Shown here: positions 17,379 through 32,432 of the stretch, piece by piece
Numbering within the stretch: position 1 is the stretch's first letter
How the letters are laid out: each line of letters begins with the position of its first letter
Source: Candidatus Bathyarchaeota archaeon
GTDB lineage: Archaea; Thermoproteota; Bathyarchaeia; Bathyarchaeales; Bathycorpusculaceae
DNA length: 64,000 nt
Assembly (NCBI GenBank): GCA_963741005.1
Contig: CAVUGQ010000005.1
Span: forward strand, 271,965-335,964
Direction: 5' to 3'
Program-made: the position numbers and the translations under genes
The notes under the pieces: generated by a model
The model's input: only the letters and a program-made list of their open reading frames with translations
Database searches by the model: none
Told to the model about the DNA's origin: nothing

Positions 17379-18644
17379 ATGACTCAGACCCAACAGGAAC
17401 AGGAAGTAACGTTGAGGTATTACCCGTTTCCCAAGCAAATGTTGTTTCACCGAGACCGCTACAAAATAAGGCACCGCGCAGTCTTTAGCGGAGTAGGAGG
17501 CGGCAAAACAATTTGCGGCTGCTTCGAAATCTTATCTATGCTCTTAGAAAACAAGAATAGCGTCGGATACATTTTTGAGCCAACCTACAAAATGGTGAGA
17601 CGAATTCTTATTCCCACTTTAGAATCAAAATGGCTGCTTGGGCATCCAATCGATAGTAACCCCATAGTTGAATCTTACAACAAAAGCGAAAACCTCATTC
17701 AATTCATAGATGGTCAATCTTTGTGGTTTGGTGGATTGGAGGAGCCGCAGTTTGCTGAAGGCGCAAACGTCAACGTCGTCTTGTTGGATGAAGCTCAGTA
17801 TATATCGCATTTTGCTGAGAGCCAAGATGTCGTATTACGTAGATTAAGAGGCAGCGGCAAAACCGATAGGGACATTACCAGTAGCATTGTTACTACGTCG
17901 CCGCCTCCGCTGATACCTGATTGTCGCCTCTACGATTTCTATGAGAACCCAGAAAAACGCAACCCTGACAGCCGAGTTTACCGTTGGTCAATGTTGGATA
18001 ACTCGTTTTTGCCTGAGAAGTACAAGCAAGAAATCATTGCAACTCACCATGGCAACTTAGCGAAACGTTTCATAGATGGCTTGTTTGCTCCAGTTGGCAT
18101 AGGAAGTTTTGATTATGATAGCGTTATTCACGAGCGCAAGTACGTCGAGCTCAGTACCCTGCAAAGTGTTGTGTACGGTGTCAACTTCGGATGGACAAAT
18201 CCCTCCGCTATCGTGGCAGTTGGCTTCGACAGCGACGGACGCGCCTACGTGCTTGACGAGTTCTATCAGAACCGAACGCAGACCGAGACGCTTATCTCGG
18301 AACTTAAAGAGATGCTTGCGCAATTTGGGCAGGGTCGCATAATTTGTGATCGCAGTTCACCCGCAACAATCGATATGCTTCACACTGCAGGCCTTAACGC
18401 TGTAGCCGACGAAAGCAAACGTGATGATGGCATACGTGAACTTGGCGGGCGCTTTATTGTGCAAGGCAATGGTAAACCACGCATTTTTATCGCGTCTAAA
18501 TGTGTGAATTTGATTCATGAAGTTATGGTTTACAACTCTGAAATTAAAGAGAATGACCACGCGATCGACGCTCTACGTTATGCCATCATGAGTGTTGTGA
18601 TGGCTAAGCCTGATGTTGAGCCTGCTTGGGTGTTTGGAGACTAA
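17379..18644 (+). CDS. terL: Terminase large subunit
   Basis: Walker A SGVGGGKT, Walker B VVLLDEAQY. C-terminal RNaseH-like nuclease with HAIDALRYAIMS. Confidence 0.85.
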   Translation: MTQTQQEQEVTLRYYPFPKQMLFHRDRYKIRHRAVFSGVGGGKTICGCFEILSMLLENKNSVGYIFEPTYKMVRRILIPTLESKWLLGHPIDSNPIVESYNKSENLIQFIDGQSLWFGGLEEPQFAEGANVNVVLLDEAQYISHFAESQDVVLRRLRGSGKTDRDITSSIVTTSPPPLIPDCRLYDFYENPEKRNPDSRVYRWSMLDNSFLPEKYKQEIIATHHGNLAKRFIDGLFAPVGIGSFDYDSVIHERKYVELSTLQSVVYGVNFGWTNPSAIVAVGFDSDGRAYVLDEFYQNRTQTETLISELKEMLAQFGQGRIICDRSSPATIDMLHTAGLNAVADESKRDDGIRELGGRFIVQGNGKPRIFIASKCVNLIHEVMVYNSEIKENDHAIDALRYAIMSVVMAKPDVEPAWVFGD

Positions 18645-20416
18645 AATTTATGGCGAGTAATCCTGAGAATCCAGTTACTTTACTGCGTGATGGCGGTATG
18701 GTAGTGTATCCTACGCAGCAAGAGGATGCTATAGCAGGCAGTAGTATACGGATTCCCTCTGTTTCTACGGCAATGGGCGCGGAGTTTGGGGAAGCAATCA
18801 CAGATGACAACCGCATATTCGCTGCGACTCGTGAGCCTATTGCAGGGTTCTTAACTGGCGGCTCCGATGGGCAACGGGGTTTTCCTAAAGACATCGTGGA
18901 AAAATGGTTCACCATAAACGATGTAACAACTAAAGATCCTGATCCAGAGCTTGATCGGGCACTGCAAAAAGAGTTTAGGCGCCTCAAATACAAAAGAGTT
19001 TTGACAGGTTTTGTTGGAGCCAAATTTCTTTATGGCAACACCTTAGTTGTCGGCTCATACGACGACGTCACTAAGCTTTCAGTGTTAGAGACTGAGAAGC
19101 CGCAGTCAGCTGCTTTGATGCAGCTTGAAGTTTACCCAAAAAATAGCTATAGCGTTTTTAGCAAAGAAACAAACCAGGAGAATTTGCGTTACGGTTTGCC
19201 ATTGATTTATCAGGTTAGTGATGGTTCAAGAACTTTCCATGTGCACTGGACCCGATGTTTTGAGTATGTTGGAGTTAGTATTCTTGATTTGATTTGGGAT
19301 GACCTCACCTGCGGTCGTAATATTCGGTGGGGTGTGGGGCAATGGGTTTATCGCACTGGCGGCGGCTTTGCGGTCATAAAGTTTCCAAAAGAAATCGCTG
19401 GAGTTCCAACTACTAAAGAGAAGTTGAGTGCGTGGGCAAATAGTAAAGAATGGAGCAACATCACACATCGCACCTCAATCTGCATTTTAGAGGGGATGGA
19501 GTTTGATTTTAAAGGTGCCTTGGGCGCAGCGCTTAACCCAGAGCCGTTTTTTGACACTAACACAAAACAGATTGCGAAAGCCACTGGTATCCCAAAAAGC
19601 ATCTTGGAGGGTGCTGAAGCTGGGGCGCTTACTGGGTCGGAGAAGAATGATCAGCAATACTACAAGAAAATTAGCGGGGAACAAAGTGAACTAGATGATT
19701 TGAACCGCTGGGTAATAGATCAACTTGAACCTGTACGTCAAACGGTGACTGTTAACGTGGATTCAGCTAAGTCTGTGGGGTCAATTTTGAAGCGTATGTT
19801 CCATAAAGCATTGGCTGTTACAGTGAAAGATCAACCTGACCCTGTTGTAGTTGATTACGATATAGTTTGGAATAGCGGGTTTGAATTATCCAAGCTTGAT
19901 GAAGCTCGGGCAGATTTGATTGAGGAGCAAGCAAACCAAACAAGGCTGCAGTATAAAACTGTGGATGAGGTTCGAAGCGACAATAATCTGAATCCTTTGC
20001 CGTTGGGTGCTGGTGAAGTTGTTATTTCTTTAAGTAAATCGCCGTCTTCAGGTCAATTTCCAAGTAGCTTGTCTGGTATCACGGCGTCAAATTCGACTGG
20101 AACTGTAAATGCTGACGATGCAGGTTCGCAGTTGCCTAATATGCGCAATTTGCTCAAGCCTATTATTAAGCAGGTTTTTGATGGGCATATGACACATGAT
20201 TTAGCGCTGCAGCAAGGCCTCACACTGGTAGAGTTCTATTGCAACACCGAAAAAGAACGTGCCCTCGATTACGTCCGCGGCAAATTCCAAAACCCCACTT
20301 TGCAGATTAGCCCAGAGCAAGAATGCGCATTTCAACGCCAAAAAACACGCTATACAAAAGACTTCACATCCATCTTGAAGAAAGCTGAGCGATTAGCGAA
20401 GGCTAAACTTCCATGA
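18626..20416 (+). CDS. Portal protein (putative)
   Basis: 596 aa. Immediately after TerL, with overlapping stop and start. Confidence 0.6.
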   Translation: MGVWRLKFMASNPENPVTLLRDGGMVVYPTQQEDAIAGSSIRIPSVSTAMGAEFGEAITDDNRIFAATREPIAGFLTGGSDGQRGFPKDIVEKWFTINDVTTKDPDPELDRALQKEFRRLKYKRVLTGFVGAKFLYGNTLVVGSYDDVTKLSVLETEKPQSAALMQLEVYPKNSYSVFSKETNQENLRYGLPLIYQVSDGSRTFHVHWTRCFEYVGVSILDLIWDDLTCGRNIRWGVGQWVYRTGGGFAVIKFPKEIAGVPTTKEKLSAWANSKEWSNITHRTSICILEGMEFDFKGALGAALNPEPFFDTNTKQIAKATGIPKSILEGAEAGALTGSEKNDQQYYKKISGEQSELDDLNRWVIDQLEPVRQTVTVNVDSAKSVGSILKRMFHKALAVTVKDQPDPVVVDYDIVWNSGFELSKLDEARADLIEEQANQTRLQYKTVDEVRSDNNLNPLPLGAGEVVISLSKSPSSGQFPSSLSGITASNSTGTVNADDAGSQLPNMRNLLKPIIKQVFDGHMTHDLALQQGLTLVEFYCNTEKERALDYVRGKFQNPTLQISPEQECAFQRQKTRYTKDFTSILKKAERLAKAKLP

Positions 20417-20766
20417 GTTTTGAATCGTTGTTTGATGCGGCTGTGCCTTTCTGGAATTCTGAGCAAGGCCTTCTGGAACGAATTGGATTATTAGCGGATC
20501 AGGTGCAGTTTGGCACTTATAATGGCTCCTTAAAAGTTATTGCTATCTCCGTTGGCGCTACTGATTTACGGATTAGCGGAGACATCACACGCAATACTTG
20601 CGAGTGGTGTGCGTTGCATGTAGGCCAAGTTTACCATCGAGGACAGTTTACGCCTGAATTGCCTAAGCATCCAAAGTGCCCTCACTATTATGAGATAGAA
20701 CGTACTGGCGCTGAACCTGTGGATCCTGACTCTGCGTTTGCAGCATTCTGGAATCTTACCTTCTAA
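20413..20766 (+). CDS. Minor head protein, Mu-F-like C-terminal domain (CxxC...HPxCxH)
   Basis: CEWCALHVGQVY...PKHPKCPHYYE resembles the conserved Cys/His motif of phage Mu F / SPP1 gp7 C-terminal domains. Coupled to the portal gene. Confidence 0.45.
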   Translation: MSFESLFDAAVPFWNSEQGLLERIGLLADQVQFGTYNGSLKVIAISVGATDLRISGDITRNTCEWCALHVGQVYHRGQFTPELPKHPKCPHYYEIERTGAEPVDPDSAFAAFWNLTF

Positions 20767-20936
20767 ATTCATGATGAACCAAATTGATTAGTGCGTGTGT
20801 GAACAGTTAGCTACATCAAATAGAGGAAGCCTTTGACTCGTGCACTCATCAATGCGTGCGTACCAAACCTAAATTGAGTTTGACAATTATTATTATCAAA
20901 AGACCCTAAATCCGCGAACCACCCTAATCACCACTC

Positions 20937-21641
20937 ATGAACACAGGTTTAACTTCCCTGCATAAAATTCTGAAAGATGAAACGAGAAGACAAATCATAC
21001 TACTGCTAAATGAGAAAAGCAGCCTTACCTACACCGAACTCTTGGATAGCTTGGAAGTTGTCAGCACAGGGCTTCTGAATTATCACCTGAAGGTTTTAGG
21101 TGACCTCTTATCGAAAAACGAAGAGGAAAAATATGTACTGGCAGAAAAGGGTAAACTTGCTTCCAGATTGCTTTCGGAGTTCCCAGAGGACAACAACCTT
21201 AAGAAGAAACCTGCATGGTGGCAAAAATTCTGGGTAGCGGAAGCCATCGTTACCCCCATTTACTTAGCGATCAATATAGCATTGTACTTCATAGGCTATA
21301 TCGACGCGACTACATTTTACAACCTTACACTCGGAATTTTTGCATTCATTGGAATCGGCTACATGATTACACACATAAAAAAAGACATACTCTCAGCCGA
21401 AGGCTTACTAAAACTCAACAAAGCGCTGTATCTGCTTGTCGGACTCTTAGTGGGAGGATTCATCATATGGATCGGCTTGACGGTTGCCATGAATGTTACA
21501 GGCGTAAGATTATTGCTAGCCAGCATCATAGGAGACGGCGCTCTTGCCATAGCAACTATGATCCCTTGCTACATTATCGGCGGCTTACTCGGCGATTGGA
21601 TAGGCAAAAAAACAAACTACTACCTCCCACACTACCCATAA
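20937..21641 (+). CDS. Membrane-anchored ArsR-like winged-HTH protein (N-terminal wHTH, C-terminal about 4 TM)
   Basis: LTYTELLDSLEVVSTGLLNYHLKVL (wHTH). Hydrophobic C-terminal half. Confidence 0.55.
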   Translation: MNTGLTSLHKILKDETRRQIILLLNEKSSLTYTELLDSLEVVSTGLLNYHLKVLGDLLSKNEEEKYVLAEKGKLASRLLSEFPEDNNLKKKPAWWQKFWVAEAIVTPIYLAINIALYFIGYIDATTFYNLTLGIFAFIGIGYMITHIKKDILSAEGLLKLNKALYLLVGLLVGGFIIWIGLTVAMNVTGVRLLLASIIGDGALAIATMIPCYIIGGLLGDWIGKKTNYYLPHYP

Positions 21642-21926
21642 ACAACTGTGTAAGAGTGTTGGCGTAGGAATGCCTTTTTAGAAGCTTCCGATGATTTGAC
21701 TTAATTTAAGCAAGCTGTCGAGCAAATATTTAGTATGAACAACTATTCAGCGGGTCGCACCCTTTTGGGTCTGAGACCCAGCGACCCACGATATCGTGTT
21801 TGTCCTTTGATTGTATTGGATTAGCTTAAAACATTAAACGAATCCCAACGGACCCAATATCAAGTATTTGGGTTTCAAATTTTGCATGTCCCTTCTAAAA
21901 TAGTCACAATTTTGTGGTGATGTAAT

Positions 21927-22283
21927 TTGATTAGGCAAATTGTTGTAGACTTCGCCGTTTTGGAGGATAGTAAAATCATCCAGGATGACAATAAATTCCT
22001 CGTTGTTAAGGCAGTGATAGCCAGCGAAATTGTGCATAAATACAAAGATGGCATGGCGTACAAGCTTGCGGACGAGTTGGAAAAGGCAGCCTGGACTGCG
22101 GATTGCAGATGGGTTAAGTTGTTGGCTCATCCGAAATCCAGCAGCCTTGACTGTGTAGAGGATGTTAACGGGAAAATGATGAATCCTGTTTTTCGTAAGG
22201 ACCTGGGACGTGTGGTTTCCATGGGAAGAAAAATCAGAGTTTGCATCATTCTGGAACCAACACACCCAACTTTAAACAGTTGA
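21927..22283 (+). pseudogene. Fragment (5' part) of the protease/scaffold gene duplicated from 29259-29600
   Basis: IASEIVHKYKDGMAYKLADELEKAAWTADCRWVK versus IASEIVHKYKDGMAYKPADELEKAAWTAEGRWVK of 29358..30413. Upstream nucleotide block 21916-22030 is near-identical to 29258-29393. Confidence 0.7.
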
Positions 22284-22479
22284 GACAAATTCACATATAA
22301 ATTGATCGATTTGGCTGTTGCAAGTTTTTTTAATTGTGTTTCTAGTTGAGACAGGCTGTTTTCATGTATTCATAATTCATAAGTGACTTATTACCCGTTC
22401 ATTGACTAGTTGAGTTGGGGTAATTCTAATACAGTATCTCGATCAGAATGGTATAGTTGTAGAAGTATCTGATTTGGCG
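22244..22479 (+). repeat. Promoter-region direct repeat, copy 1 (near-identical to 25231-25464). Contains a 2x CTAGTTGAG motif.
   Basis: About 235-bp near-identical block read directly. Confidence 0.85.
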
Positions 22480-22989
22480 CATTCATCCAAAAAAGGCGCT
22501 ATTCGTGTTTTGTATGTAGACGACGACCCTTATAGTATAGAGATTTCCAAGCAGATCCTAATGGACATCGATGCCCGCTTTGAGATTAGCGACGCTTGTT
22601 GTGTGGATGTAGCCTTCAAAAAACTGGAAACTGGGCAATATGATGTTGTTGTTTCTGATTATGAATTGCCTCTTAAAAATGGCTTAGAATTTCTAAAGGA
22701 GTTGCGTAAAAATAAAAATGAAATTCCGTATATTTTGTTTACGGGTAAGGGCAGAGAAGAAGTTGCGGTTAAAGCTTTGAATTTAGGTGCTGACAGTTAC
22801 ATAAGCAAGATCGGTTCTACAAAAACAGTTTTTTTCGAGTTGGCGGATGCAATAAACAAAGCAATTCAACGCAAGAAATCAAAAGAGCTGCTTGCCGGAT
22901 CAGAGACAAAATATCGCACTAGTAGAGAAATCACTTCAAGGAATATTAGTTACAAAAGTAGGTCCACTCAGGCTAGTTTTTGCAAATAA
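22474..22989 (+). CDS. Response-regulator receiver (REC) domain. N-terminal part of sensor 1, separated from the kinase ORF by a frameshift or overlap.
   Basis: VLYVDDDPYSIEISKQIL...VVVSDYELPLKNGLEFLK...FTGKGRE. The paralog 25460..28480 has REC-PAS-HK in one frame. Confidence 0.75.
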   Translation: MAHSSKKGAIRVLYVDDDPYSIEISKQILMDIDARFEISDACCVDVAFKKLETGQYDVVVSDYELPLKNGLEFLKELRKNKNEIPYILFTGKGREEVAVKALNLGADSYISKIGSTKTVFFELADAINKAIQRKKSKELLAGSETKYRTSREITSRNISYKSRSTQASFCK

Positions 22990-24796
22990 TGCTATGGGAA
23001 AAATCCTGGGTTACTCTTCGCAGGAATTACTGTCCTTATCGCCCCAAGGAATTATGGGCTTGATTTATCCTGAAGACAGGGCTATTTTCTTTAAACGAAT
23101 GGAAAATCGCTTGCAAGGTGAAGAGCCAGAGTCATTCCACGAGTTTCGTGCAGTGAGAAAAGACGGCTCAATAATCTGGATGAACGCGCTTGCAAATCGA
23201 ATTGAGTTTGAAGAGCAACCTGCAGTACAGGGCGTTTTCTTAGATATTGACGAACGCAAGAAACTAGAAGCTACAGTTAAAGAAAAACTGGATATGCTTG
23301 AAGCCCTCACAGAAAACATCGGCGCGGGCTTTGTAACCATAAGCAAAGATTATCGTGTAATGTACGCGAATAAATTCGTAAAAAACAATTTAGGCAACGT
23401 AGAGGGAAAATTGTGCTATGCAACCCTTAACACTTTGGACCACATTTGCCCTGATTGCGGAGTAAAAAAAGTCTTCAAAGAGGGAGTCGCTAAAGACTCT
23501 CACGAATATTCTCAAATAGGATTAGATGGCAAGCGGTTTTTCGTTGACATTATTGCCACTCCCCTTAAAGATAAAGATGGAAATGTGACTGCAGCATTAG
23601 AGTTTATTGTAGACATAGGTGAAAAAAAACGCTTACAGCAAAAACTGCAGACAAACGAGGCAAAGTTTAGAGCTATAAGTGATTCTGCAATTGACGCTAT
23701 TTTCATGTTTGATGAAGAAGACAAAATCACTTACTGGAATCCTGCCTCTGAAAGAATTTTTGGATTTACTGAAGAAGAAGTAGTTGGCGAGAAAGTAAAC
23801 GCGACACTCGTGCCTTCTCGCTTTCGCGCAGAGCACCTGAAAATCACTTCGGAATTGGGCAAAGTCAAGAACAAGGAAAATGCTGGTGAGACTCGCGAGT
23901 TGCCTGCTCTGCGAAAAGATGGTGAAGAATTTTCAATGGAGCTTTCTATGGCGCCACTGCAGCTAGAAAATAAAGGGTACTTCGTAGCTATAGCAAGAGA
24001 TGTGACTGAGCGCAAAAAAGCTGAAGAGCTCCGAAAAGTTTTGGAGAGAAAAGTAAACGACTATTCAAAACACTTGAAATGCATGGTTGAATTGAGAACT
24101 GTCCAGTTAAGGGATGCTAATGAACGACTCGTCAAGTCTGAACGCCTAGCCGCTATAGGCGAATTAGCTGGCATGGTCGGTCATGACCTGCGTAACCCGC
24201 TTGCAGGAATCAAAAACGCTGCCTACTACTTGAAGAAGAAAGGCACAGACATTTCTGAAACTAAATCTAAAGAAATGCTTGAAATAATCGATAAAGCCAT
24301 TGGCCACTCAGATAGCATCATCAACGACTTGCTAGACTACTCAAGAGAGATGCATCTGGAACTAACAAAATATCTAGCAAACAATCTTGTAGATGAGGCT
24401 ATTGGCATGATTCAGGTTCCAGAGCGAATACAAATTATAAATAACGTTCCGGATACGATTTGGATTTGGGTCAATGCTGATAAGATGATGCGAGTTTTCA
24501 TAAATTTTATCAATAATGGAATTGACGCAATTCCTGAGAAAGGAACACTCATAATGACAAGTTGCCAAACAAGAAACTATATGAAAATCAAGTTTTCTGA
24601 CACAGGCAAAGGCATACCTGAAGAAACTTTCAAAAAGCTTTTCACGCCTCTGTTCACCACTAAAGCACAGGGTATGGGTTTTGGCTTAGCAATATGCAAA
24701 CGAATCGTAGAAGCGCATGGAGGCGCCATAACCGTGAAAACAGCCGTAAAAAAGGGAACAATATTCACAATAGCTTTACCCCTAAGGAATAGTTAA
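22892..24796 (+). CDS. Sensor histidine kinase 1 (3 PAS, HisKA, HATPase_c). One PAS carries the Cys triad C-x9-C-x2-C.
   Basis: H-box AGMVGHDLRNPLAGI. G2 box KAQGMGFGLAICKRIVEAHGG. PAS-linked RDVTERKKAEE segments. CYATLNTLDHICPDCG. Confidence 0.8.
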   Translation: MPDQRQNIALVEKSLQGILVTKVGPLRLVFANNAMGKILGYSSQELLSLSPQGIMGLIYPEDRAIFFKRMENRLQGEEPESFHEFRAVRKDGSIIWMNALANRIEFEEQPAVQGVFLDIDERKKLEATVKEKLDMLEALTENIGAGFVTISKDYRVMYANKFVKNNLGNVEGKLCYATLNTLDHICPDCGVKKVFKEGVAKDSHEYSQIGLDGKRFFVDIIATPLKDKDGNVTAALEFIVDIGEKKRLQQKLQTNEAKFRAISDSAIDAIFMFDEEDKITYWNPASERIFGFTEEEVVGEKVNATLVPSRFRAEHLKITSELGKVKNKENAGETRELPALRKDGEEFSMELSMAPLQLENKGYFVAIARDVTERKKAEELRKVLERKVNDYSKHLKCMVELRTVQLRDANERLVKSERLAAIGELAGMVGHDLRNPLAGIKNAAYYLKKKGTDISETKSKEMLEIIDKAIGHSDSIINDLLDYSREMHLELTKYLANNLVDEAIGMIQVPERIQIINNVPDTIWIWVNADKMMRVFINFINNGIDAIPEKGTLIMTSCQTRNYMKIKFSDTGKGIPEETFKKLFTPLFTTKAQGMGFGLAICKRIVEAHGGAITVKTAVKKGTIFTIALPLRNS

Positions 24797-24827
24797 AATG
24801 TACCTATAAGATGAACATAAACTAATA

Positions 24828-25049
24828 GTGGCATTAGTTTTAGGTACTGTAGGTTTTTTTGTTGGTCGCGCGGCGGTACATGGTTTTATTTTGAAGGATC
24901 GCTCATTTTTAAAAGAGTTTACTCTTTCCATTGACTCGCCAGGAGAGTTTCATTGGCAAAAATACGATTACGTGCAGCGGAACATCTGCATAGACCAATT
25001 GGCAGCGCCATCAACACAGGATCCTATACTAATGCACTTCAATTGTTAG
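24828..25049 (+). pseudogene. Internal fragment of the protease/scaffold gene (matches aa about 110-150 of 29358..30413)
   Basis: SPGEFHWQKYDYVQRNICIDQLAAP versus TPGEFQGQKYDYVQRNICIDHLAAP. Confidence 0.65.
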
Positions 25050-25230
25050 CACCCGCATAAGGTGTTCAGTACTTCAAGCTGGCTGGTCCGCAACCAAAAT
25101 GCGAATATTGCATCAAGTATTATGGGTGCATCTATCGGCAAGGCATGTATATAGCCCGAGTTTCCTGCACACCCAAATTGTTCTCACACCTGGGATATTT
25201 GGTTTCAACGGGGAAAAAAATCAGATTTCG

Positions 25231-25464
25231 CATCATTCTTGAACCAACACACCCCAACTTTAAACAGTTGAGGCAAACTCACCTATATTGATCGCCTTGG
25301 CTGTTGCATGTTTTTTTAATTGTGTTTCTAGTTGAGGCAGGCTGTTTTCATGTATTCATAATTCATAAGTGACTTATTACCCGTTCATTGACTAGTTGAG
25401 TTGGGGTAATTCTAATACAGTATCTCGATCAGAATGGTATAGTTGTAGAAGTATCTGATTTGGC
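25231..25464 (+). repeat. Promoter-region direct repeat, copy 2
   Basis: Near-identical to 22244-22479. Confidence 0.85.
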
Positions 25465-28400
25465 GGTTTCAAACAAAAAGAGTGCTATTCATGTTCTGCA
25501 TGTTGATGACGACCCGTCCATTCAAGAGATAACAAAACTAATGCTAACTGATATGGATAGCTGCTTTGAGATTGATCAGGCTTGCTGTGTTGATGAAGCT
25601 TTCAAGAAGCTTGCAGCCAAAAACTATGATGTTGTGGTTTCTGATTATGAGATGCCCCAAAAAGACGGCTTACAGTTTCTAAAAGAGTTGCGTGAGGCAA
25701 AAAACGCTGTTCCTTTCATATTGTTTACTGGGAAGGGTAGGGAAGAAGTATCCATCAAAGCGTTGAATCTGGGCGCGGATGGTTACTTCCACAAGCAAGG
25801 CCTACCCGAAACCGTCTACGGCGAACTCGCACACGGCATAACTCTTGTTACTGAAAAAGCAAAAGCAAAAACAGCCTTAGAGGCGAGCGAAAAACGATAC
25901 CACACGCTTATGGATAATGCAGCAGAAGCAATTTTTATTCACGATATAAAAGGGAAATTATTAGATGTTAATCTGCAAGCATGCAAAAATCTACAGTATA
26001 CAAGAGAAGAACTGCTCTCAAAAAGTATTAAAGACATATCCATTACCGCAGAAGATGGAAAACAAATAGGTGAAATATGGTCCAAAGTGCTTACAGGGCA
26101 CACCATCAATCTACAGAGCATCCAAATACGTAAAGACAAAAGCATATTTCCAATAGAGGTAACTTTGAGCACTATATCTCTTGATAAAGAAAAATTAGTA
26201 ATTGCTTTGGTGCGAGATATCACCGAACGCAAAAAAGCTGAAGATGTTCTGCGAAGAAGTGAGCAGAGGTATCGAGAGCTATCTAATTCTTTGCCGGAGT
26301 TGGTTTTTGAAACTGACTTAACCGGAAAAATTATCTATATTAGTCAACGAGCTACCGATTTCACTGGCTTCACTAATGAGGAGCTTAAAGGAAGGAACAT
26401 GTTGGAGTTCGTTATTCCTGAAGAACGAAAAAGAGCAATAGAGAACATGAAGAGATCCTTAACTGGTGAAAATTTGGGTTCGACTGAGTATACCCTTTTC
26501 AAGAGAGATGGTTCAACTTATCCCACCTTCATTCGAACCGCTCCCATCATTTCCGAAAGCAAAGTAACTGGACTCCGAGGACTAGTCATCGAAATAACTG
26601 AACGCAAGAAAGCTGAAGATGATTTGAAGTTTTCCAAGGAGTTTAGTGAGAGCGTAATTAACTCGGTAGATGAGGTGCTTCTTGTAATTGACGTTAATGA
26701 TTTCAGGATAGTTGATGCCAATTCTGCAGCTTTAAAGCAAACAGGCTGCAGTAAAGCAGAATTGACTAAGAAAACATGCTACGCCATGACGCATCATAAA
26801 CCTGTCTCTTGCCAGCCTCCAAATGATATTTGCCCCATTCATGAAATGCTACAAACCGGTAAACCAGTCAAGGTTGAACACAAACACTTTGACAAAAATA
26901 ACAATGAACTATCAGTGGAAGTTTCGGTTTACCCAATTAGAAACGTTGAAGGCAAAATAATTCAAGCAACCCACATTTCAAGAGATATAACGGAAATCAA
27001 AACGGATAGAGTGATGTCAAAGAGTGCTTGTAATCAGCTTAATTCCTTGTTTTTGGCAATGAATGAAGGATTTTGCCTACATGAATTAGTTTATAATAAG
27101 TTTGGCAAAGCAGTTGACTACACGATTCTAAACGCCAACCCGGCTTATGAAGAAATATTGAGATTAAAGAAGAACGAGGTTATCGGGAGAAGAGGGTCTG
27201 AAATTTATGGTTCAAATCAGGCACCCTATCTGGAATTATATGTAAAGGTTGCTGAAACCAAAGAACCAATCATTTTTGAAACATATTTTGACCCTCTAAA
27301 AAAACACTTCAGTATCTCTGTTTTTTCACCAAACAAAGATCAATTTGCAACAGTATTCACAGACATTACTGACCGCAAAAACGCTGAAGAAAAATTGAAA
27401 AATTTAAAGGCGTTTGATGAAAGAATAATTAGCTCTCTTAGTGAAGCTCTTTTAGTAATTGATCCTGATAACTATAAGATTATCACCGTCAATGACGAAG
27501 CACTAAAACAAATGAAGATGAAAAAGGACGACGTTATTGGAAAAACATGCTATGAAATGACGCACCACAGAACAACCCGTTGCCAACCTCCAAATGATAT
27601 TTGTCCAATTCAAGAAGTGATAGAAACTGGCAATTCCGTAACGGTTGAGCATGTCCATCTTGACGAAAACAACAATCAACGAATTGTAGAAGTCTGGGCT
27701 CGTCCTGTAATAAATCCAGAAGGCAAAAACGTGATTATTCACGTAGCCAAAGACATCACTGAACGTAAAAGAGCTGAAGAATCAATGAACCGGATGATGG
27801 ACCAGTTGGTGTTGGTTAATGAGAAGTTGGGTGTCGTTGGCAGCTTGACTAGACATGATGTCCGTAACAAGCTTTCAACTGTGACTGGTTATGCGTATTT
27901 GCTTAGGAAAAAGCATTCTGATCAAGCAGATATCATTGAAGGGCTTGGCAAAATGGAGCAAGCTGTTGGGGAGTCGATGAAGATGTTTGATTTCGCTAAA
28001 ATGTATGAACAGTTAGGGGTAGAAGAACTGACATTTATAGACGTTGAAGCTAAACTAACTGAAGCAATTACATTGTTTTCAGGTTTGCTGCCAAAGATAA
28101 TAAATAAATGCCACGGATTAACGGTCTTAGCTGATTCATTTCTTAGGCAAATGTTCTACAATTTCATTGATAATACGAGAAAATACGGCACAAAAACCAC
28201 AACTATAAAAGTGCACTATGAAAAGGCGGACCACGATAGTTTAAGGTTGGTTTATGAAGATGATGGTGTAGGTATATCTTTAGAGAATAAAATGCGTCTT
28301 TTCAGGGAAGGTTTCAGCACAGGCGGCAGCACAGGCTTTGGACTATTCCTCACCAAAAAGATGATAGATGTTTATGGCTGGGCAATTGAAGAGAATGGTG

Positions 28401-28480
28401 AACCAGGCATAGGCGCCAAATTCATCATAACCATTCCAAAACTAAACAAAAATGGAAAAGAAAACTATCAAATTACCTAG
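25460..28480 (+). CDS. Hybrid sensor 2: REC plus multiple PAS plus HisKA-like plus HATPase_c (1006 aa). Two tandem PAS copies each carry the Cys triad C-x10-C-x6-C-P-I-H.
   Basis: REC VLHVDDDPSIQEITK...VVVSDYEMPQKDG. TCYAMTHHKPVSCQPPNDICPIHE and TCYEMTHHRTTRCQPPNDICPIQE. H-box LTRHDVRNKL. G2 GSTGFGLFLTKKMIDVYGW. Confidence 0.8.
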   Translation: MAVSNKKSAIHVLHVDDDPSIQEITKLMLTDMDSCFEIDQACCVDEAFKKLAAKNYDVVVSDYEMPQKDGLQFLKELREAKNAVPFILFTGKGREEVSIKALNLGADGYFHKQGLPETVYGELAHGITLVTEKAKAKTALEASEKRYHTLMDNAAEAIFIHDIKGKLLDVNLQACKNLQYTREELLSKSIKDISITAEDGKQIGEIWSKVLTGHTINLQSIQIRKDKSIFPIEVTLSTISLDKEKLVIALVRDITERKKAEDVLRRSEQRYRELSNSLPELVFETDLTGKIIYISQRATDFTGFTNEELKGRNMLEFVIPEERKRAIENMKRSLTGENLGSTEYTLFKRDGSTYPTFIRTAPIISESKVTGLRGLVIEITERKKAEDDLKFSKEFSESVINSVDEVLLVIDVNDFRIVDANSAALKQTGCSKAELTKKTCYAMTHHKPVSCQPPNDICPIHEMLQTGKPVKVEHKHFDKNNNELSVEVSVYPIRNVEGKIIQATHISRDITEIKTDRVMSKSACNQLNSLFLAMNEGFCLHELVYNKFGKAVDYTILNANPAYEEILRLKKNEVIGRRGSEIYGSNQAPYLELYVKVAETKEPIIFETYFDPLKKHFSISVFSPNKDQFATVFTDITDRKNAEEKLKNLKAFDERIISSLSEALLVIDPDNYKIITVNDEALKQMKMKKDDVIGKTCYEMTHHRTTRCQPPNDICPIQEVIETGNSVTVEHVHLDENNNQRIVEVWARPVINPEGKNVIIHVAKDITERKRAEESMNRMMDQLVLVNEKLGVVGSLTRHDVRNKLSTVTGYAYLLRKKHSDQADIIEGLGKMEQAVGESMKMFDFAKMYEQLGVEELTFIDVEAKLTEAITLFSGLLPKIINKCHGLTVLADSFLRQMFYNFIDNTRKYGTKTTTIKVHYEKADHDSLRLVYEDDGVGISLENKMRLFREGFSTGGSTGFGLFLTKKMIDVYGWAIEENGEPGIGAKFIITIPKLNKNGKENYQIT

Positions 28481-28553
28481 TAAAATACCTTATTCTAAAC
28501 CTTTCTAGAGAGAGCGATAGAAGCCAACAAAAGAAGAGTTTCTGCCTACTTCC

Positions 28554-29114
28554 TCAAAACAAGGCCATAATGGTAGGTTTGAGGGCGAATTCTTTCTCAA
28601 TAATAAACTCGACAGATTCTGCCCATCTTCTGCATTGTTCAGGTCTGGGTCTAATCTCCATTGGCGGCCCTCTGGGTGTTGTGGAGTCATAGTTCCAATG
28701 AATAATGCCAACTTTACCGCCAAGTTTCAAAATACGGTAAGATTCTCTTAACAGCTGTTCAGGTTTTTCAAGATGGAGAATATTAAAGAGAAAAACAAAA
28801 TCAACACTCGCATCTTCTAATCCTGAACCCTCTGAAATGAAATCACATAGCACCGCCTCCACATTGCCAAGGTTGAGCTCTTTTGCCTTTTGCTCCACTG
28901 TCTTTATCATTTCGGGCTCCATGTCAAAAGCGTAAATTTTACCCGTGATTATTTTTGCTGCAGGTATGGTGAATGTTCCATAGCCACAGCCAAAATCCGC
29001 CACATCGATTACATGGCAACTTAGACCTAATTGGTTAAGTGCCTGACTTGGATCGAAAAACTGTATCCACTCTTCCTCTTTAGGCATGCCGCTTTCCCGG
29101 ATCTTCAACTGCAA
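28554..29114 (-). CDS. Class I SAM-dependent methyltransferase
   Basis: Motif I VIDVADFGCGYGTFTIPAA. 186 aa. Confidence 0.7.
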   Translation of the reverse strand: MQLKIRESGMPKEEEWIQFFDPSQALNQLGLSCHVIDVADFGCGYGTFTIPAAKIITGKIYAFDMEPEMIKTVEQKAKELNLGNVEAVLCDFISEGSGLEDASVDFVFLFNILHLEKPEQLLRESYRILKLGGKVGIIHWNYDSTTPRGPPMEIRPRPEQCRRWAESVEFIIEKEFALKPTIMALF

Positions 29115-29257
29115 TTCTCCAATTTAATTCCATTAACCCTTCGTAATTAACTTTCATGAAAAATCAGAAAAATAGCACAATAAATCCTACTTTAATTTTG
29201 TTTTCCAAACTCCTCTTTTAACTTAATCGTAGCTTCAAAAATATTTGACGGACTCAT

Positions 29258-29393
29258 GGTGATGTAATTTGATTAGGCAATTTGTTGTAGACTTCGCTGT
29301 TTTGGAAGATAGCAAAATCATCCTGGATGATGATAAATTCCTTGTTGTTAAGGCAGGGTGATAGCCTCCGAAATTGTGCATAAGTACAAAGAT
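29258..29393 (+). repeat. Upstream and 5' block of the protease gene, repeated at 21916-22030
   Basis: Near-identical nucleotide block. A 2-nt indel puts the N-terminal extension out of frame here. Confidence 0.8.
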
Positions 29394-30413
29394 GGCATGG
29401 CATACAAGCCTGCTGATGAGCTTGAGAAGGCTGCTTGGACTGCTGAGGGCAGATGGGTAAAAGCATTAAGTCACCCTGTAAGTGACCAAATCAGAAGTGT
29501 AAACGACATAAATGGGCGCATGGAAAACCCCCGCTTCAGAAAAGATCTCAATGATCCCAAAACTAATAGGCCTTGTAGACGGGGCATAGAGGTAGATATA
29601 CGTTTTTTTAAGGACCGCACCGGCAAAGACGTACTTGATAAAATCAAGAGTGGGCAGTTGAAAGATAATAGTATAGGGTTTAGCTGCGATAAGGATGTGA
29701 CGCCTGGCGAATTTCAGGGGCAAAAATACGATTACGTGCAGCGCAACATTTGCATTGACCATTTGGCTGCGCCTATTGAGCAGGGACGTTGCCCTTCGCC
29801 TTACTGTGGCATAAACGTGGATTCTGATGAAGAGGATAAGCCGATCGTTGAAGTTCAAGATGCAAACTTGGGTATAAATTACCGTTTTGATTCAGCCAAA
29901 TTCACTTCCGAAAAAGCTGCGGAGTGGGTGCAGAAGCGAACATACAAAGACTGTCCCGTATGCACGCGCATCGAAGAAGTTGGTTTGTTAACTGCAGCTC
30001 AACGACTCTACAAGCAGTATGGCGCTGATGTTTTGGAAGTTGTTGAAGGTCACGCTTTGCCGCCTGTTGTACCTCAGAAGGTACTTGTTAATTTTAGAGA
30101 TGTTTCTGACGCTATGACTCCGGTGCAGATAGACGCGAAAATTCAGGAACTACATAGCCAATATGATGCTTTGCGTGTGAAGGAAAAAGCGTTCTATGAA
30201 ACTCAGAAACTTGAGCCTTCTCCACAGCTGCAGAAGTTGTATCAGCAAATGGGCGACATCGACAACGAAATTAAAGCGTTCACTGAACTTAAAGCTAAGA
30301 AAATAGTTGAAGCCAACACTGATTCAGCCGTAGCCGATGGCAAAGACGATGTTATCTTGAAGAATCGGCAGGCTCTCAAAGACCTCTATAGCTTAACAGA
30401 GATTTTTACTTAA
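29358..30413 (+). CDS. Putative head-maturation protease fused to a coiled-coil scaffold-like C-terminus
   Basis: Positioned between portal/MuF and capsid. C-terminal 100 aa are coiled-coil-like (KIQELHSQYDALRVKEKAFYETQKLE...). The family assignment is by position only. Confidence 0.4.
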   Translation: MIASEIVHKYKDGMAYKPADELEKAAWTAEGRWVKALSHPVSDQIRSVNDINGRMENPRFRKDLNDPKTNRPCRRGIEVDIRFFKDRTGKDVLDKIKSGQLKDNSIGFSCDKDVTPGEFQGQKYDYVQRNICIDHLAAPIEQGRCPSPYCGINVDSDEEDKPIVEVQDANLGINYRFDSAKFTSEKAAEWVQKRTYKDCPVCTRIEEVGLLTAAQRLYKQYGADVLEVVEGHALPPVVPQKVLVNFRDVSDAMTPVQIDAKIQELHSQYDALRVKEKAFYETQKLEPSPQLQKLYQQMGDIDNEIKAFTELKAKKIVEANTDSAVADGKDDVILKNRQALKDLYSLTEIFT

Positions 30414-30577
30414 GTTTTTTTCTGAAATTTCTATTCACGCCGTGTGATTCTCTTCCTTCAGTGCAGAGACTAAACAGCGCTGTTCACGCAGCCAAAGCGT
30501 GACGAAATGCCTCAAAGGGGCACTCCAAAAAGGAGCAAGAGAGGAAAAAAGAAGTAAATATGTAGGAGAAAAAAACT

Positions 30578-30997
30578 ATGTCTACACCAGAAAAGAAAAC
30601 TGTTTTACTAGACGAAGACGAATACAAAGGGTTGCTTGCTAAAAACATAGCTCAAGCCACCGAAATTAGTCAAGTTAAAGCGCAACTAAAAGATTCAACT
30701 GATGCCTTAGTTCTAATCAAAACAAAGATTGATTCTGCAGAAAAAGAAGAGAAAGAAGCTGTAATCACTGATTTAGTACGTGATAGCCAGGGCAAATTAA
30801 CCGTTGAAACCCTCAAAGACCATAGCCTTAACGAACTGTATTTTCTTAAAGATACTTTGTATAAGGCTGAGCCGAAAACTTTTGTATCCGTTATGAAGCA
30901 ACGTGAAGCAGACCAAATTAAACCTAAACCCCAGGAGACAAGCGTTGGAATCTATGATTCTGTCGCTCACAAATTTGTAGGAGGTCAAGAGCAGTAG
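30578..30997 (+). CDS. Scaffold-like coiled-coil protein
   Basis: 139 aa. Charged, K/E-rich. Confidence 0.35.
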   Translation: MSTPEKKTVLLDEDEYKGLLAKNIAQATEISQVKAQLKDSTDALVLIKTKIDSAEKEEKEAVITDLVRDSQGKLTVETLKDHSLNELYFLKDTLYKAEPKTFVSVMKQREADQIKPKPQETSVGIYDSVAHKFVGGQEQ

Positions 30998-31566
30998 TGA
31001 CTACTCCAGTAGTTTATGGCAGTGCAAGCGCTGATCCAGGTGTTGGTCCACAACCAAACGGCTCGATCGTTGTTGATGGTCAACCTGACGTTCAATACCT
31101 CAACTTAGAAACTGCCGCTGACTGTTATCCAGGTAGACTTGTCACAAAGGGTACCCATGACAATGATGTTGCAGTTTGTGGAGCTGGCGGAGTTCCAGTT
31201 GGCGTCTTAGGTTATGAGCAGGCGTCAAAGAAGGATCGTCCAGCAACCAGAGCAACCATCTATGTTGTAGATGCTCAAGTGCCAGTTCTCAAAAGAGGCA
31301 AAGGCGCAACCGTTATGCTGTACCTTTCAGCTGATGCAGCGACTATTGTGAAGGGCGATAAACTTGTTTGTGCAGCCGCAGGATGCGTCACTAAAGCGTC
31401 AGCCGCGAAATTTGAAACTTCAACCGCAGCAGCAGTCCTTGGCGACTCAGCTTCACCAACCATCGTAGGCAGCATACCCACAGAAGGATTGCCAGTAGCA
31501 ACTGCAGAGGAATCAGCAACCGTCGTAGACGTTGGCGGATGGATCATGGCGACATTGGAGAGATAA
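30997..31566 (+). CDS. Ala/Gly/Val-rich head protein (possible decoration or cement)
   Basis: 189 aa. Directly upstream of the capsid gene; start overlaps the preceding stop. Confidence 0.3.
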   Translation: MTTPVVYGSASADPGVGPQPNGSIVVDGQPDVQYLNLETAADCYPGRLVTKGTHDNDVAVCGAGGVPVGVLGYEQASKKDRPATRATIYVVDAQVPVLKRGKGATVMLYLSADAATIVKGDKLVCAAAGCVTKASAAKFETSTAAAVLGDSASPTIVGSIPTEGLPVATAEESATVVDVGGWIMATLER

Positions 31567-32432
31567 AAATGAAACCCCTACAATTTGTTGGAAAAGACGA
31601 ACCATTAAACACGATGCAAGGCTTAACCCTTAGACCTTCAGCCATAGCAATTGCACGCAGAACCTTTGTTGGACGTAAACTCTTTGGTCGAGCAGTCACC
31701 TTTGTGCCTCCGGAAACACAGACTTACCAATACAGTAAATTAGCTGAAATGAGCCATGCACGAACCGATCCTAAGTACCCGGGCAAAGAGAACCTTGACA
31801 TACTCAGCGAAGAGGTAACTCCAGTAAACATACCAATTCACCACAAAGAATTCGTCATACCCAAAGCTGATCTTGACGCTTCACGCATGACAGGCATCCC
31901 ATTGAACACAAAATATAGTGATGCGGCAACCTACCAAGTGGGTCTGCAAGAAGACGACATAATCATCAACGGCAACGCAGTTATTCCAGGTCTCTATAAT
32001 GGCGCCGGAAACAGGGAAGCCTCAAACCTTCATTGGAGTACTGCAACAAACATTCCACTGAGCATCAAAGCTGCAAAGATTCTGTTGGCAGCTGATCACA
32101 TGTACAAGCCCTATAATTTGCTGATTAATCCTCAGGAAGACGAATCTTTAGATGCGTTTGTTGCGAATACTGCGATTCGTTGGCGCGAGAAAGTGTTGGA
32201 TAGCATTGGCGGCGAAATCTTTGTTTCTGAAGCAATCGCAGTTGGCACAGGCTTGATGATGAAGTCTGAACCGATTAATATGGCTGAACTAGTTATTGCA
32301 CGTGACTTAACCATTGAAACTGAGGAAGAGACTCTGCGGGATGGCGGCGGCTTGTTTGGTCGATGCTTCATTCGAGATTTGCCAGTGATTATACAGTCTA
32401 ACGTGATCTGCCAAATGACAGATATCGAATAA
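31539..32432 (+). CDS. Putative major capsid protein (HK97-fold size class)
   Basis: 297 aa. Follows protease/scaffold. Followed by an oligo-T terminator. Confidence 0.45.
   Translation: MDHGDIGEIKMKPLQFVGKDEPLNTMQGLTLRPSAIAIARRTFVGRKLFGRAVTFVPPETQTYQYSKLAEMSHARTDPKYPGKENLDILSEEVTPVNIPIHHKEFVIPKADLDASRMTGIPLNTKYSDAATYQVGLQEDDIIINGNAVIPGLYNGAGNREASNLHWSTATNIPLSIKAAKILLAADHMYKPYNLLINPQEDESLDAFVANTAIRWREKVLDSIGGEIFVSEAIAVGTGLMMKSEPINMAELVIARDLTIETEEETLRDGGGLFGRCFIRDLPVIIQSNVICQMTDIE

Follow-up and report, generated by a model that had tools for sequence, protein, structure and literature searches.

Cysteine-triad PAS domains in histidine kinases of a head-tailed archaeal virus, a candidate iron-sulfur redox or oxygen sensor

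In the window, a 64,000-nucleotide stretch of a Candidatus Bathyarchaeota genome, a viral hybrid histidine kinase (sensor 2) carries two copies of a PAS domain with three invariant cysteines and a set of conserved histidines. Taking together its sequence, its predicted structure, and its analogy to described proteins, we read this domain as a candidate iron-sulfur sensor of redox state or oxygen; this is the best reading, and we put its probability at roughly 0.5. The ligand would be an Fe-S cluster rather than another metal or heme, and the signal would presumably be redox or oxygen. PAS domains are the commonest intracellular sensor modules, yet only a minority have a known signal, all the more so in uncultured anaerobes.

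Results

The features of the two sensor genes and the preceding receiver (REC) gene are listed in Table 1. Sensor 2 is composed of a REC domain (aa 12 to 114), five PAS domains, a DHp domain with an RHDVRN H-box, and HATPase_c (aa 893 to 994). Pfam recognized Response_reg, PAS_9/PAS_4/PAS, and HATPase_c, and matches above the curated cutoffs were obtained for PAS_9 (202.8 bits), PAS_4 (188.5 bits; best stretch aa 658 to 771, spanning the second Cys-triad PAS), and the generic TIGR00229 (223 bits), which was the only NCBIfam result. TCYAMTHHKPVSCQPPNDICPIHE (aa 439 to 462; C440/C451/C458 at nucleotides 26777 to 26833) and TCYEMTHHRTTRCQPPNDICPIQE (aa 696 to 719; C697/C708/C715 at nucleotides 27548 to 27604), the motif strings quoted in an earlier note on this DNA, are present exactly in the translation of 25460..28480. 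The spacing had been given there as C-x9/10-C-x6-C; the x6 is correct for sensor 2, and the first interval is x10 and not x9, both copies reading C-x10-C-x6-C-P. The family-specific residues are C440, H445, C451, C458, P459, H474, H476, and H505 in PAS3 and C697, H702, C708, C715, P716, H731, H733, and H761 in PAS5; E487 of PAS3 and E744 of PAS5 are conserved too, but are common to PAS domains generally.

Table 1. Features of the REC, sensor 1, and sensor 2 genes (positions in the window)
Feature	Position	Strand	Basis
Stand-alone receiver (REC) gene before sensor 1	22474..22989	+	Pfam Response_reg, repeats D1, D6, D8
Sensor 1 kinase, 634 aa, three PAS + HisKA + HATPase_c	22892..24796	+	ORF, translation, Pfam
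Sensor 1 PAS2, type-B Cys-triad PAS, aa ~133-247	23288..23632	+	Translation, alignment, AF2
Sensor 2 hybrid kinase, 1006 aa	25460..28480	+	ORF, translation, Pfam, NCBIfam
Sensor 2 PAS3, first type-A Cys-triad PAS, aa ~396-515	26645..27004	+	
Motif copy 1, C440-YAMTHHKPVS-C451-QPPNDI-C458-P459	26777..26836	+	Translation, family conservation
Sensor 2 PAS4, unrelated, without triad, aa ~527-648	27038..27403	+	Pfam PAS_4 stretches, pairwise scores
Sensor 2 PAS5, second type-A Cys-triad PAS, aa ~653-772	27416..27775	+	Family profile, PAS3 identity
Motif copy 2, C697-YEMTHHRTTR-C708-QPPNDI-C715-P716	27548..27607	+	Translation

Pairwise comparison identified PAS3 and PAS5 as true paralogues, with 51% identity and a score of 319, no other PAS pair exceeding 142, and a DNA repeat links nucleotides 26771 to 26957 with 27542 to 27728 at 71%. 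The two copies had been described as adjacent and tandemly duplicated. The duplication stands; the tandem arrangement does not, because PAS4, which scores at most 46 against either copy, lies between them. Simple tandem duplication is thus ruled out.

A profile built from the two sensor-2 copies and one homologue retrieved, at E<=1e-30, 488 proteins, each representing a 50% identity cluster, and conservation was counted over the 114 domains scoring at least 100 bits. Conservation of the cysteines in homologues had been set beforehand as a check on the motif, and in domain numbering C45, C56, C63 (Cys1 to Cys3), and P64, together with N26 and H79, are 100% conserved (114/114), followed by H50 (98%), H81 (97%), H110 (95%), and P59 (93%); the best 150 matches were chosen with a profile that has the invariant Cys, which brings some ascertainment bias to these figures, lessened by the 60- to 100-bit class and by the bimodal score distribution. 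Mean column identity over the strong domains is ~57%. Across the family, I/L/V directly follows C63-P64 in 96%, and Glu lies two residues past Cys1 in 62%, including sensor-2 copy 2. Since the triad is invariant in 114 domains that are otherwise ~36 to 55% identical, the alignment places its conservation far beyond chance.

Judged by sequence scores, the sensor-2 type is a large, sharply bounded family: its domains reach 130 to 207 bits, other PAS domains in the same proteins at most 53 bits, and the triad is missing in 2 of the 44 domains in the 60- to 100-bit range. We define the type-A clade by C-Y-x2-T-H-x4-P-C-x6-C-P, H-x-H on strand Gβ, and H/E on Iβ, at 100 bits or more with the A1 profile; both sensor-2 copies belong to it, with 205 to 207 bits and every signature residue. 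A sister subfamily keeps C45, H50, C56, C63, H79, and H81 and has Glu (86%) at position 110, and variants with x8/x4 Cys spacing exist among related proteins. A word-index homologue search gave one match with a single domain, and a 40-sequence profile gave short, generically named proteins only. Pfam and NCBIfam hold no model specific for the motif, only generic PAS models matching; PDB searches found no solved structure with it, and literature searches found no paper on it, the motif-string queries returning only unrelated proteins such as FhuF, RING fingers, and reductive dehalogenases.

Sensor 1 had been proposed to contain the matching site. CYATLNTLDHICPDCG is present in the 22892..24796 product, with C175-x10-C186-x2-C189 at nucleotides 23414 to 23458; the ORF overlaps the preceding REC gene, so the real start of sensor 1 is probably downstream of 22892. 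The Cys topology of this PAS2 domain, also in its AF2 model, is the same as in sensor 2, and E237 occupies the position of sensor-2 H505. The match goes no further: the second spacer is x2, identity to the sensor-2 copies is 23 to 24%, the type-A profile gives 20.6 bits against 205 to 207 for the sensor-2 copies, and the T-H and H-x-H signature is missing. Thus, sensor 1 PAS2 is not a type-A member; it agrees with the sensor-2 copies in topology and belongs to a different subfamily.

The AlphaFold models (pLDDT 94.3 and 92.5, the latter for sensor 1 PAS2) are canonical PAS folds, with a five-stranded antiparallel β-sheet flanked by helices Cα to Fα. In the AF2 secondary structure, helix Eα opens with Cys1, the loop between Eα and Fα contains Cys2, and Cys3, followed by Pro, caps helix Fα immediately before its start; H79 and H81 are on strand Gβ, and H110 is on Iβ. 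In the HMM alignment to LOV domains, C45 coincides with the photoactive, flavin-adduct Cys and H81 with the Gβ Asn that binds flavin; H110 precedes the Iβ Gln by two residues, on the same face, and Cys3 comes one helical turn ahead of the FMN-phosphate Arg of Fα. The pocket face of Gβ and Iβ carries H79, H81, and H110. From these positions, the conserved Cys and His are predicted to surround one pocket, forming one putative site.

A search with a three-sequence alignment led to 29 genome loci, in Bathyarchaeia, Thermodesulfovibrionia/Nitrospirota, Omnitrophota, Geobacter, Thermoplasmata, Methanobacteriota, Zixibacteria, Bacteroidales, and Spirochaetaceae. By the labels of these 29 MAGs, the lineages carrying the Cys-triad PAS are mostly anaerobic, a few Nitrospiria/Nitrospiraceae among them being possible aerobes. 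The domain is used modularly in kinases, σ54 activators, and c-di-GMP enzymes, and both genomes and single proteins contain many paralogous copies of it; one member, P0028, has the order CysPAS-PAS-PAS-σ54 AAA+-HTH_8. No conserved neighbors other than PAS kinases, and no conserved metal-resistance genes, were found at the 29 loci. A motif pattern scan of viral contigs gave no relative, and tblastn of the domain against plasmids gave no match.

Sensors 1 and 2 are cargo of a head-tailed archaeal virus. Both genes are located within the head-gene block of this virus of Bathyarchaeia, between the portal and protease genes. The 5' end of the REC gene and its upstream region are duplicated ahead of sensor 2 (22201 to 22597 versus 25188 to 25583, 82 to 91%). 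For the repeated protease fragments, an assembly artefact is ruled out, their copies being 82 to 92% identical and not 100%. A survey of Bathyarchaeia viruses does not mention histidine kinases.

Discussion

In the iron-sulfur reading, the canonical cofactor pocket of a cytoplasmic PAS domain would have been rebuilt around three invariant cysteines, to which the sensor-2 type adds His445, His474-x-His476, and His505, the last being Glu in the sister subfamilies and in sensor 1. The three Cys, with His/Glu or an exogenous fourth ligand, would most likely hold an iron-sulfur cluster, and oxidation, damage by O2 or NO, or ligand exchange at this cluster would shift the PAS β-sheet and Fα into another conformation and so switch the downstream kinase, as happens in OrpR and NreB, whose PAS domains have three or four Cys. 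The Cys and His invariance, the sharp boundary of the family, the ligand-like swap of His to Glu, and the predicted pocket placement all argue for a cluster, as do, by analogy, the OrpR/NreB precedent, the mostly anaerobic distribution, and the OrpR-like architecture of P0028. Moreover, a Cys-Pro ending is a hallmark of ferredoxin C-x2-C-x2-C-x3-C-P motifs. Against an Fe-S cluster count the Cys spacings, x10/x6 and x10/x2, which are unlike x8/x3 in OrpR and x2/x11 in NreB, and the four extra conserved His, which exceed the need of one cluster and would suit Zn, a second metal, or heme equally well.

OrpR, a σ54 activator of Desulfovibrio vulgaris Hildenborough, has a PAS domain with C52-x8-C61-x3-C65, a conserved D/E54, and a redox-sensitive [4Fe-4S] cluster (PMC8359166). 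The Cys-triad PAS is likened to it by the described Cys pattern: both are cytoplasmic PAS domains of an anaerobe with exactly three conserved Cys, Cys1 being followed after 8 to 10 residues by two closely spaced Cys, and both have an acidic residue two positions past Cys1 (Glu in 62% of our family); P0028 has the same kind of PAS-σ54 AAA+-HTH architecture. Unlike the C-x8-C-x3-C of OrpR, however, the spacing is C-x10-C-x6-C-P in sensor 2 and C-x10-C-x2-C in sensor 1, the T-H / H-x-H / H signature of type A is not reported for OrpR, and the output of both sensors is a histidine kinase. The NreB PAS domain of S. carnosus (CX2CX11CX2C, [4Fe-4S]) is an O2 sensor, and that of B. licheniformis, in which three Cys (CX2CX11C) suffice for a [2Fe-2S] cluster, is a sulfide sensor (PMC13478379). 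As in sensors 1 and 2, the Cys site of NreB, with its bound Fe-S cluster, lies within a PAS domain of a histidine kinase, and the C-x10-C-x2-C of sensor 1 resembles the last three Cys of S. carnosus NreB, C-x11-C-x2-C. The Cys order and spacing nonetheless differ, neither sensor having a CX2C before the x10/x11 spacer, and in NreB, a HisKA_3 kinase of Firmicutes, the site is in the N-terminal PAS. PDB sequence searches with the Cys-triad PAS gave no detectable match to an Fe-S PAS. The earlier note had raised an undescribed PAS subfamily. As a class, three-Cys Fe-S PAS domains are already described in OrpR (PMC8359166) and NreB (PMC13478379), and sensor 1 belongs to another subfamily; the absence of a specific model and of a paper among our search results, together with a LOV domain as best PDB relative, supports the view that the sensor-2 motif itself has not been described.

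By sequence and by structure, LOV domains and the NifL FAD-PAS come closest, the best PDB relative of the family being a LOV domain (E 1e-7). It is nevertheless extremely improbable that the domain is a diverged LOV- or NifL-like flavin binder whose Cys1, lying on the LOV photoactive Cys, keeps the flavin-adduct role. Against GXNCRFLQ of LOV, the Cys aligns, but the family has G-K-T-C-Y-x-x-T-H with no Arg or Gln; C-Y-x-x-T-H thereby stands in place of NCRFLQ, Fα lacks the Arg, whose position is variable, the Gβ Asn is H81, and S/A occupies the Iβ Gln position. The family shares only 16 to 23% identity with LOV, and the E-F loop is four residues longer than in LOV/NifL, with two extra invariant Cys that a flavin would leave unexplained. 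LOV photochemistry is ruled out, the flavin ligands being absent. These replacements, and the lack of CXXCH, bear out the view that this is not the usual heme, FAD, or FMN site; a c-type heme site is ruled out by the same lack. A heme-thiolate sensor could use the invariant Cys-Pro-I/L/V as a CP motif and a conserved His as alternative axial ligand, possibly switching between Cys and His ligation in response to redox state or a gas, as Rev-erbβ or RcoM-type sensors do. C63-P64 is fully conserved and almost always followed by I/L/V, C458-P-I and C715-P-I fit the heme regulatory pattern of Cys-Pro plus a hydrophobic residue, as a resemblance only, conserved His lie on the pocket face of the β-sheet, and the heme-PAS of DosP is among the best Foldseek matches. 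Yet one Cys would be enough for heme, leaving two invariant Cys unexplained, Cys-then-Pro is equally typical of Fe-S motifs and helix N-caps, and the family shows no conservation at the usual heme-His position of Fα, which makes heme very unlikely.

Zinc, in a Cys3His-type site or in two metal sites, is an unlikely ligand. It might act as a structural Eα-Fα staple, which the Pro-rich E-F loop, four residues longer than in LOV, might need, or in a regulatory way, thiol oxidation freeing Zn as in Hsp33/RsrA-type switches; three invariant Cys with His50/79/81/110 are classic Zn ligand sets. On the other hand, the residues are predicted to line the ligand pocket and not a surface knuckle, and there is no obvious reason why Zn with a purely structural role would be confined to mostly anaerobic lineages. 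In WalK, the cytoplasmic PAS is Zn regulated, as cited in PMC10468136, and our domains are likewise candidates for metal regulation of a histidine kinase through a cytoplasmic PAS; unlike WalK they offer Cys as ligand candidates, and sequence likeness is limited to a weak N-terminal match. A metal-free thiol/disulfide or persulfide switch, oxidized by quinones, peroxide, or polysulfide as in ArcB, AccS, and RdmS and altering PAS conformation or dimerization, has documented parallels in the redox kinases AccS (PMC6456745) and Methanosarcina RdmS/MsmS (PMC11784639). Three nearby Cys could form alternative disulfides; the co-invariant His set and the swap of His to Glu at position 110 would be left unexplained, and known switch Cys are usually less rigidly spaced and outside the PAS pocket, so that we hold such a switch decidedly improbable. 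AccS itself, the "three cysteine" redox kinase, is rejected as a relative, its Cys being in the kinase core and not in a PAS domain (PMC6456745). The WalK ligands, for their part, are reportedly His/Asp/Glu with no Cys, a precedent that speaks against Zn here. For As(III), Hg(II), Cd(II), Pb(II), and Cu(I), coordination by three Cys is canonical, and the invariant triad matches it, as if an ArsR/MerR/CadC-type trigonal S3 site had been grafted into the PAS pocket. Such a soft metal or metalloid sensor is highly improbable given the many paralogous copies per genome and protein, the very diverse signaling architectures, the lack of conserved metal-resistance genes near the 29 loci, and the conserved His, superfluous for S3 sites.

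By the signature C-Y-x2-T-H-x4-P-C-x6-C-P with H-x-H and H/E, probable metal- or redox-sensing domains can be recognized in several hundred or more 50%-identity protein clusters. If the iron-sulfur reading is true, the very short list of Fe-S PAS domains (NreB and OrpR) would extend to archaea and many candidate phyla, and a likely input signal would be assigned to many multi-PAS kinases. It is conceivable, though somewhat unlikely, that the C-x10-C-x6-C-P / H-x-H / H(E) clade is a widespread, unrecognized class of metallo-cofactor sensors of anaerobic archaea and bacteria, beyond the chemistry of OrpR and NreB, here captured and duplicated by a virus; its chemistry might then be, for example, a Cys3His cluster, or a cluster plus a His-lined site, sensing O2, NO, H2S, or H2. 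From the position of these genes in a virus, it seems that archaeal viruses are able to carry two-component sensors that respond to redox state, and, if this is true, sensor capture and duplication could couple the viral program to the redox state of the host.

Cys-Triad PAS Domains in the Two Sensors

The Cys-motif strings quoted in the earlier note were matched exactly in both Cys-PAS copies within sensor 2 and in sensor 1 (see the table). The two sensor-2 copies, PAS3 and PAS5, share 51% identity, and their alignment score is 319, compared to at most 142 for any other PAS pair in both sensors, and the repeat is also seen in the DNA (26771-26957 versus 27542-27728, 71% identical). They had been taken to be adjacent; however, an unrelated PAS4 lies between them. 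Because the Bathyarchaeia MAG chromosomal homologues of sensor 2 have one Cys-PAS copy each, the second copy seems to stem from a lineage-specific duplication. The sensor-1 Cys-PAS shares only 23 to 24% identity with the sensor-2 copies. A profile of the sensor-2 type (type A), built from both copies and one close homologue, the first one found, scored the sensor-1 domain at 20.6 bits, whereas the sensor-2 copies scored 205 to 207 bits.

Features of the sensors and their neighborhood (window coordinates)
Feature	Position	Strand	Description
Terminase large subunit (TerL)	17379-18644
Portal	18626-20416
Sensor 1	22892-24796	+	ORF, 634 aa; Pfam: three PAS, HisKA, HATPase_c
Sensor-1 motif	23414-23458		C175-x10-C186-x2-C189, in the sensor-1 Cys-PAS
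Sensor 2	25460-28480	+	ORF, 1006 aa; Pfam: REC aa 12-114, several PAS, HATPase_c aa 893-994
Sensor-2 motif copy 1	26777-26836		C440-x10-C451-x6-C458-P, in PAS3 (aa 396-515)
Sensor-2 PAS4	aa ~527-648		Unrelated PAS, between PAS3 and PAS5
Sensor-2 motif copy 2	27548-27607		C697-x10-C708-x6-C715-P, in PAS5 (aa 653-772)
SAM-dependent methyltransferase	28554-29114	-	Methyltransf_25/11; cargo, between sensor 2 and the protease gene
Head maturation protease	29358-30413
Scaffold	30997-31566
HK97-like capsid	31539-32432

Conservation and Distribution of the Type-A Family

A search of 1.84 billion representative proteins with the type-A profile returned 488 proteins at E≤1e-30. Conservation was evaluated on the 114 domains of at least 100 bits from the best 150 of these proteins, and the pattern was confirmed on a 40-sequence subset (36 to 55% identity to the query) and on 66 full-length proteins. 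The Cys triad proved invariant in these homologues: by position within the domain, N26, C45, C56, C63, P64, and H79 are 100% conserved, followed by H50 (98%), H81 (97%), E92 and H110 (95%), P59 (93%), and Y46 and T49 (89%). In sensor-2 numbering, C45, H50, C56, C63, H79, H81, E92, and H110 are C440, H445, C451, C458, H474, H476, E487, and H505. The consensus reads G-K-x-C-Y-E-x-T-H-x4-P-C-x-P-P-x-D-x-C-P-[ILV] and, after gaps, E-H-x-H … V-E-V … H-[VI]-x-R-D-I-T-E-R-K. Two of the conserved residues, E92 and N26, occur widely among PAS domains, including the non-Cys PAS domains of sensors 1 and 2; therefore, the family-specific set consists of the three Cys, the Pro residues, and four His.

The family is sharply bounded: its members score 130 to 207 bits and other PAS domains of the same proteins ≤53. 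Nearly all domains of an intermediate class (60 to 100 bits) keep the triad, and the class retains C45, H50, C56, C63, H79, and H81; position 110 is Glu, not His, in 86% of its members, a swap as expected for a metal-ligand or proton-relay position. In the same proteins, PAS domains with lower scores often show other three-Cys variants, including C-x10-C-x2-C-P (the sensor-1 type), C-x10-C-x4-C, and C-x8-C-x4-C, and all of these make up a continuum of Cys-PAS domains. In 48 examples of the sensor-1 type, conservation is limited to the Cys triad and generic PAS residues, and the T-H and H-x-H signature is absent. Glu or His occupies position 110 in ~77% of low-scoring domains, and in sensor 1 the residue is Glu237.

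The outputs are mostly histidine kinases, with HATPase_c in 39 of the 66 proteins alongside REC, GAF, HAMP, GGDEF, and EAL domains; one member (P0028) has the architecture CysPAS-PAS-PAS-σ54 AAA+-HTH_8. A genome scan yielded 29 loci, the best in Bathyarchaeia (88% identity) and others in Thermodesulfovibrionia and other Nitrospirota, Omnitrophota, Geobacter, Thermoplasmata, Methanobacteriota, Zixibacteria, Bacteroidales, and Spirochaetaceae. Anaerobes dominate among these lineages, and no conserved neighbor gene was found at the 29 loci.

Pfam and NCBIfam gave matches to generic PAS models only, and searches of the literature, Pfam/NCBIfam, and the PDB turned up nothing on C-x10-C-x6-C-P or the His signature that goes with it, whether as a publication, a family model, or a solved structure. 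A large PAS survey (PMC10468136) refers to just nine PAS domains of the Fe-S type, which all fall within a single heme cluster. Thus, the suggestion of an undescribed PAS subfamily is supported for the motif but not for the broader class, as three-Cys Fe-S PAS sensors already exist.

Predicted Fold and Pocket

AF2 models from family alignments showed a canonical PAS fold for both sensor-2 PAS3 (pLDDT 94.3) and the sensor-1 Cys-PAS (92.5). In PAS3, helix Eα (45-49) begins with C45, the 14-residue Eα-Fα loop contains C56, and C63-P64 opens helix Fα (64-71); Gβ carries H79 and H81, Hβ carries E92, and Iβ carries H110. The sensor-1 model has the same topology, with C47 at the start of Eα, C58 within the loop, and C61 directly before Fα. 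Therefore, the "matching site" assigned to sensor 1 is correct in topology but not in subfamily.

By HMM alignment with LOV domains, C45 corresponds to the flavin-adduct Cys and H81 to the Gβ Asn; the Fα Arg that contacts FMN phosphate falls three residues, one helical turn, after C63, and the Iβ Gln two residues after H110, on the same strand face. Together with the known LOV structure, this alignment predicts that the Cys/His positions all line one pocket.

Viral Setting and Duplications

The neighbors of both sensors (17379-32432) constitute a head-tailed virus morphogenesis block, and between portal and protease lies ~9 kb of cargo comprising an HTH protein, a REC gene, sensor 1, sensor 2, and the methyltransferase. 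IMG/VR contigs encode terminases 60 to 78% identical to that of the window; in one such contig (L032), protease, scaffold, and capsid come immediately after the portal, without intervening sensors. Both sensors are viral cargo. A survey of Bathyarchaeia viruses leaves histidine kinases unmentioned (PMC10541130). The closest relatives of sensor 2 are Bathyarchaeia chromosomal kinases (47 to 50% overall, 77% in the kinase core), which points to host capture followed by duplication.

Most remaining ORFs in the window lack a Pfam match, and no tRNAs were found in it. Possible virion fibers or adhesins are an ice-binding-like domain protein (49749-50501; PF11999, E 1.5e-52), a Kelch-repeat and Big_7 protein (313-1179), and a 778-aa Laminin_G_3 protein (41982-44318).

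Diverged partial copies of the 5' region of the protease gene flank and interrupt the cargo, bordering each sensor cassette (21915-22117 versus 29257-29461, 85 to 92% nucleotide identity; 24937-25009 versus 29701-29773, 86%), and fragments 21921-22280 and 24810-25046 share 60 to 66% amino acid identity with the L032 protease. They look like scars of two insertion or duplication rounds rather than an assembly artifact. A ~400-nt repeat (22201-22597 versus 25188-25583, 82 to 91% identity) spans the upstream noncoding region and the first ~124 nt of the REC gene (22474) or the sensor-2 REC (25460); therefore, a duplicated promoter and 5' end are common to both cassettes. The REC ORF (22474-22989) and the sensor-1 ORF share ~98 nt, read in different frames. 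The Bathyarchaeia locus L007 has the same split (REC ORF 2657-, kinase ORF 3508- with CYQTFNFTETICPDC), and REC plus sensor 1 is probably a genuine two-gene unit, not a frameshift.

Pfam HisKA recognizes the phospho-acceptor region of sensor 1 but not that of sensor 2 (SLTRHDVRNKL; aa ~800-815, ~27860-27900). The sensor-2 region is similar to non-canonical archaeal H-box types of Methanosarcina kinases, some of which are not autokinases (PMC11784639).

A Candidate Metal Cofactor

A bound metal cofactor best explains three invariant Cys and three to four invariant His/Glu in the classical PAS pocket, along with the Cys-Pro ending, mostly anaerobic lineages, and modular signaling use. A Cys-Pro ending is typical of ferredoxin motifs. 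The Cys/His residues very likely constitute some kind of functional cofactor or redox site; more specifically, the pocket would most likely hold an Fe-S cluster, a reading to which we assign a probability of about 0.5. Precedents come from OrpR, whose PAS (C52-x8-C61-x3-C65 with conserved D/E54) holds a [4Fe-4S]2+ cluster that mild oxidation converts to [3Fe-4S], switching the activator off (PMC8359166), and from NreB, which binds [4Fe-4S] via CX2CX11CX2C in S. carnosus and a three-Cys [2Fe-2S] via CX2CX11C in B. licheniformis, where a labile sulfur supplies the fourth ligand (PMC13478379). Like OrpR, the family has an acidic residue two positions after the first Cys (Glu in 62%, including sensor-2 copy 2); however, compared by published motifs alone, its Cys spacings match neither system.

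Other readings are less likely. Zn held by Cys3His, structural or redox-released, draws on the same ligands but seems unlikely, and heme-thiolate ligation through the Cys-Pro motif is more doubtful still. Equally doubtful is a metal-free thiol switch, which would use the triad but leave the co-invariant His set unexplained. A soft-metal or metalloid sensor is improbable, and a divergent flavin site, with C45 in the adduct position, very much so. For the preferred Fe-S reading, the cluster would report redox potential or O2.
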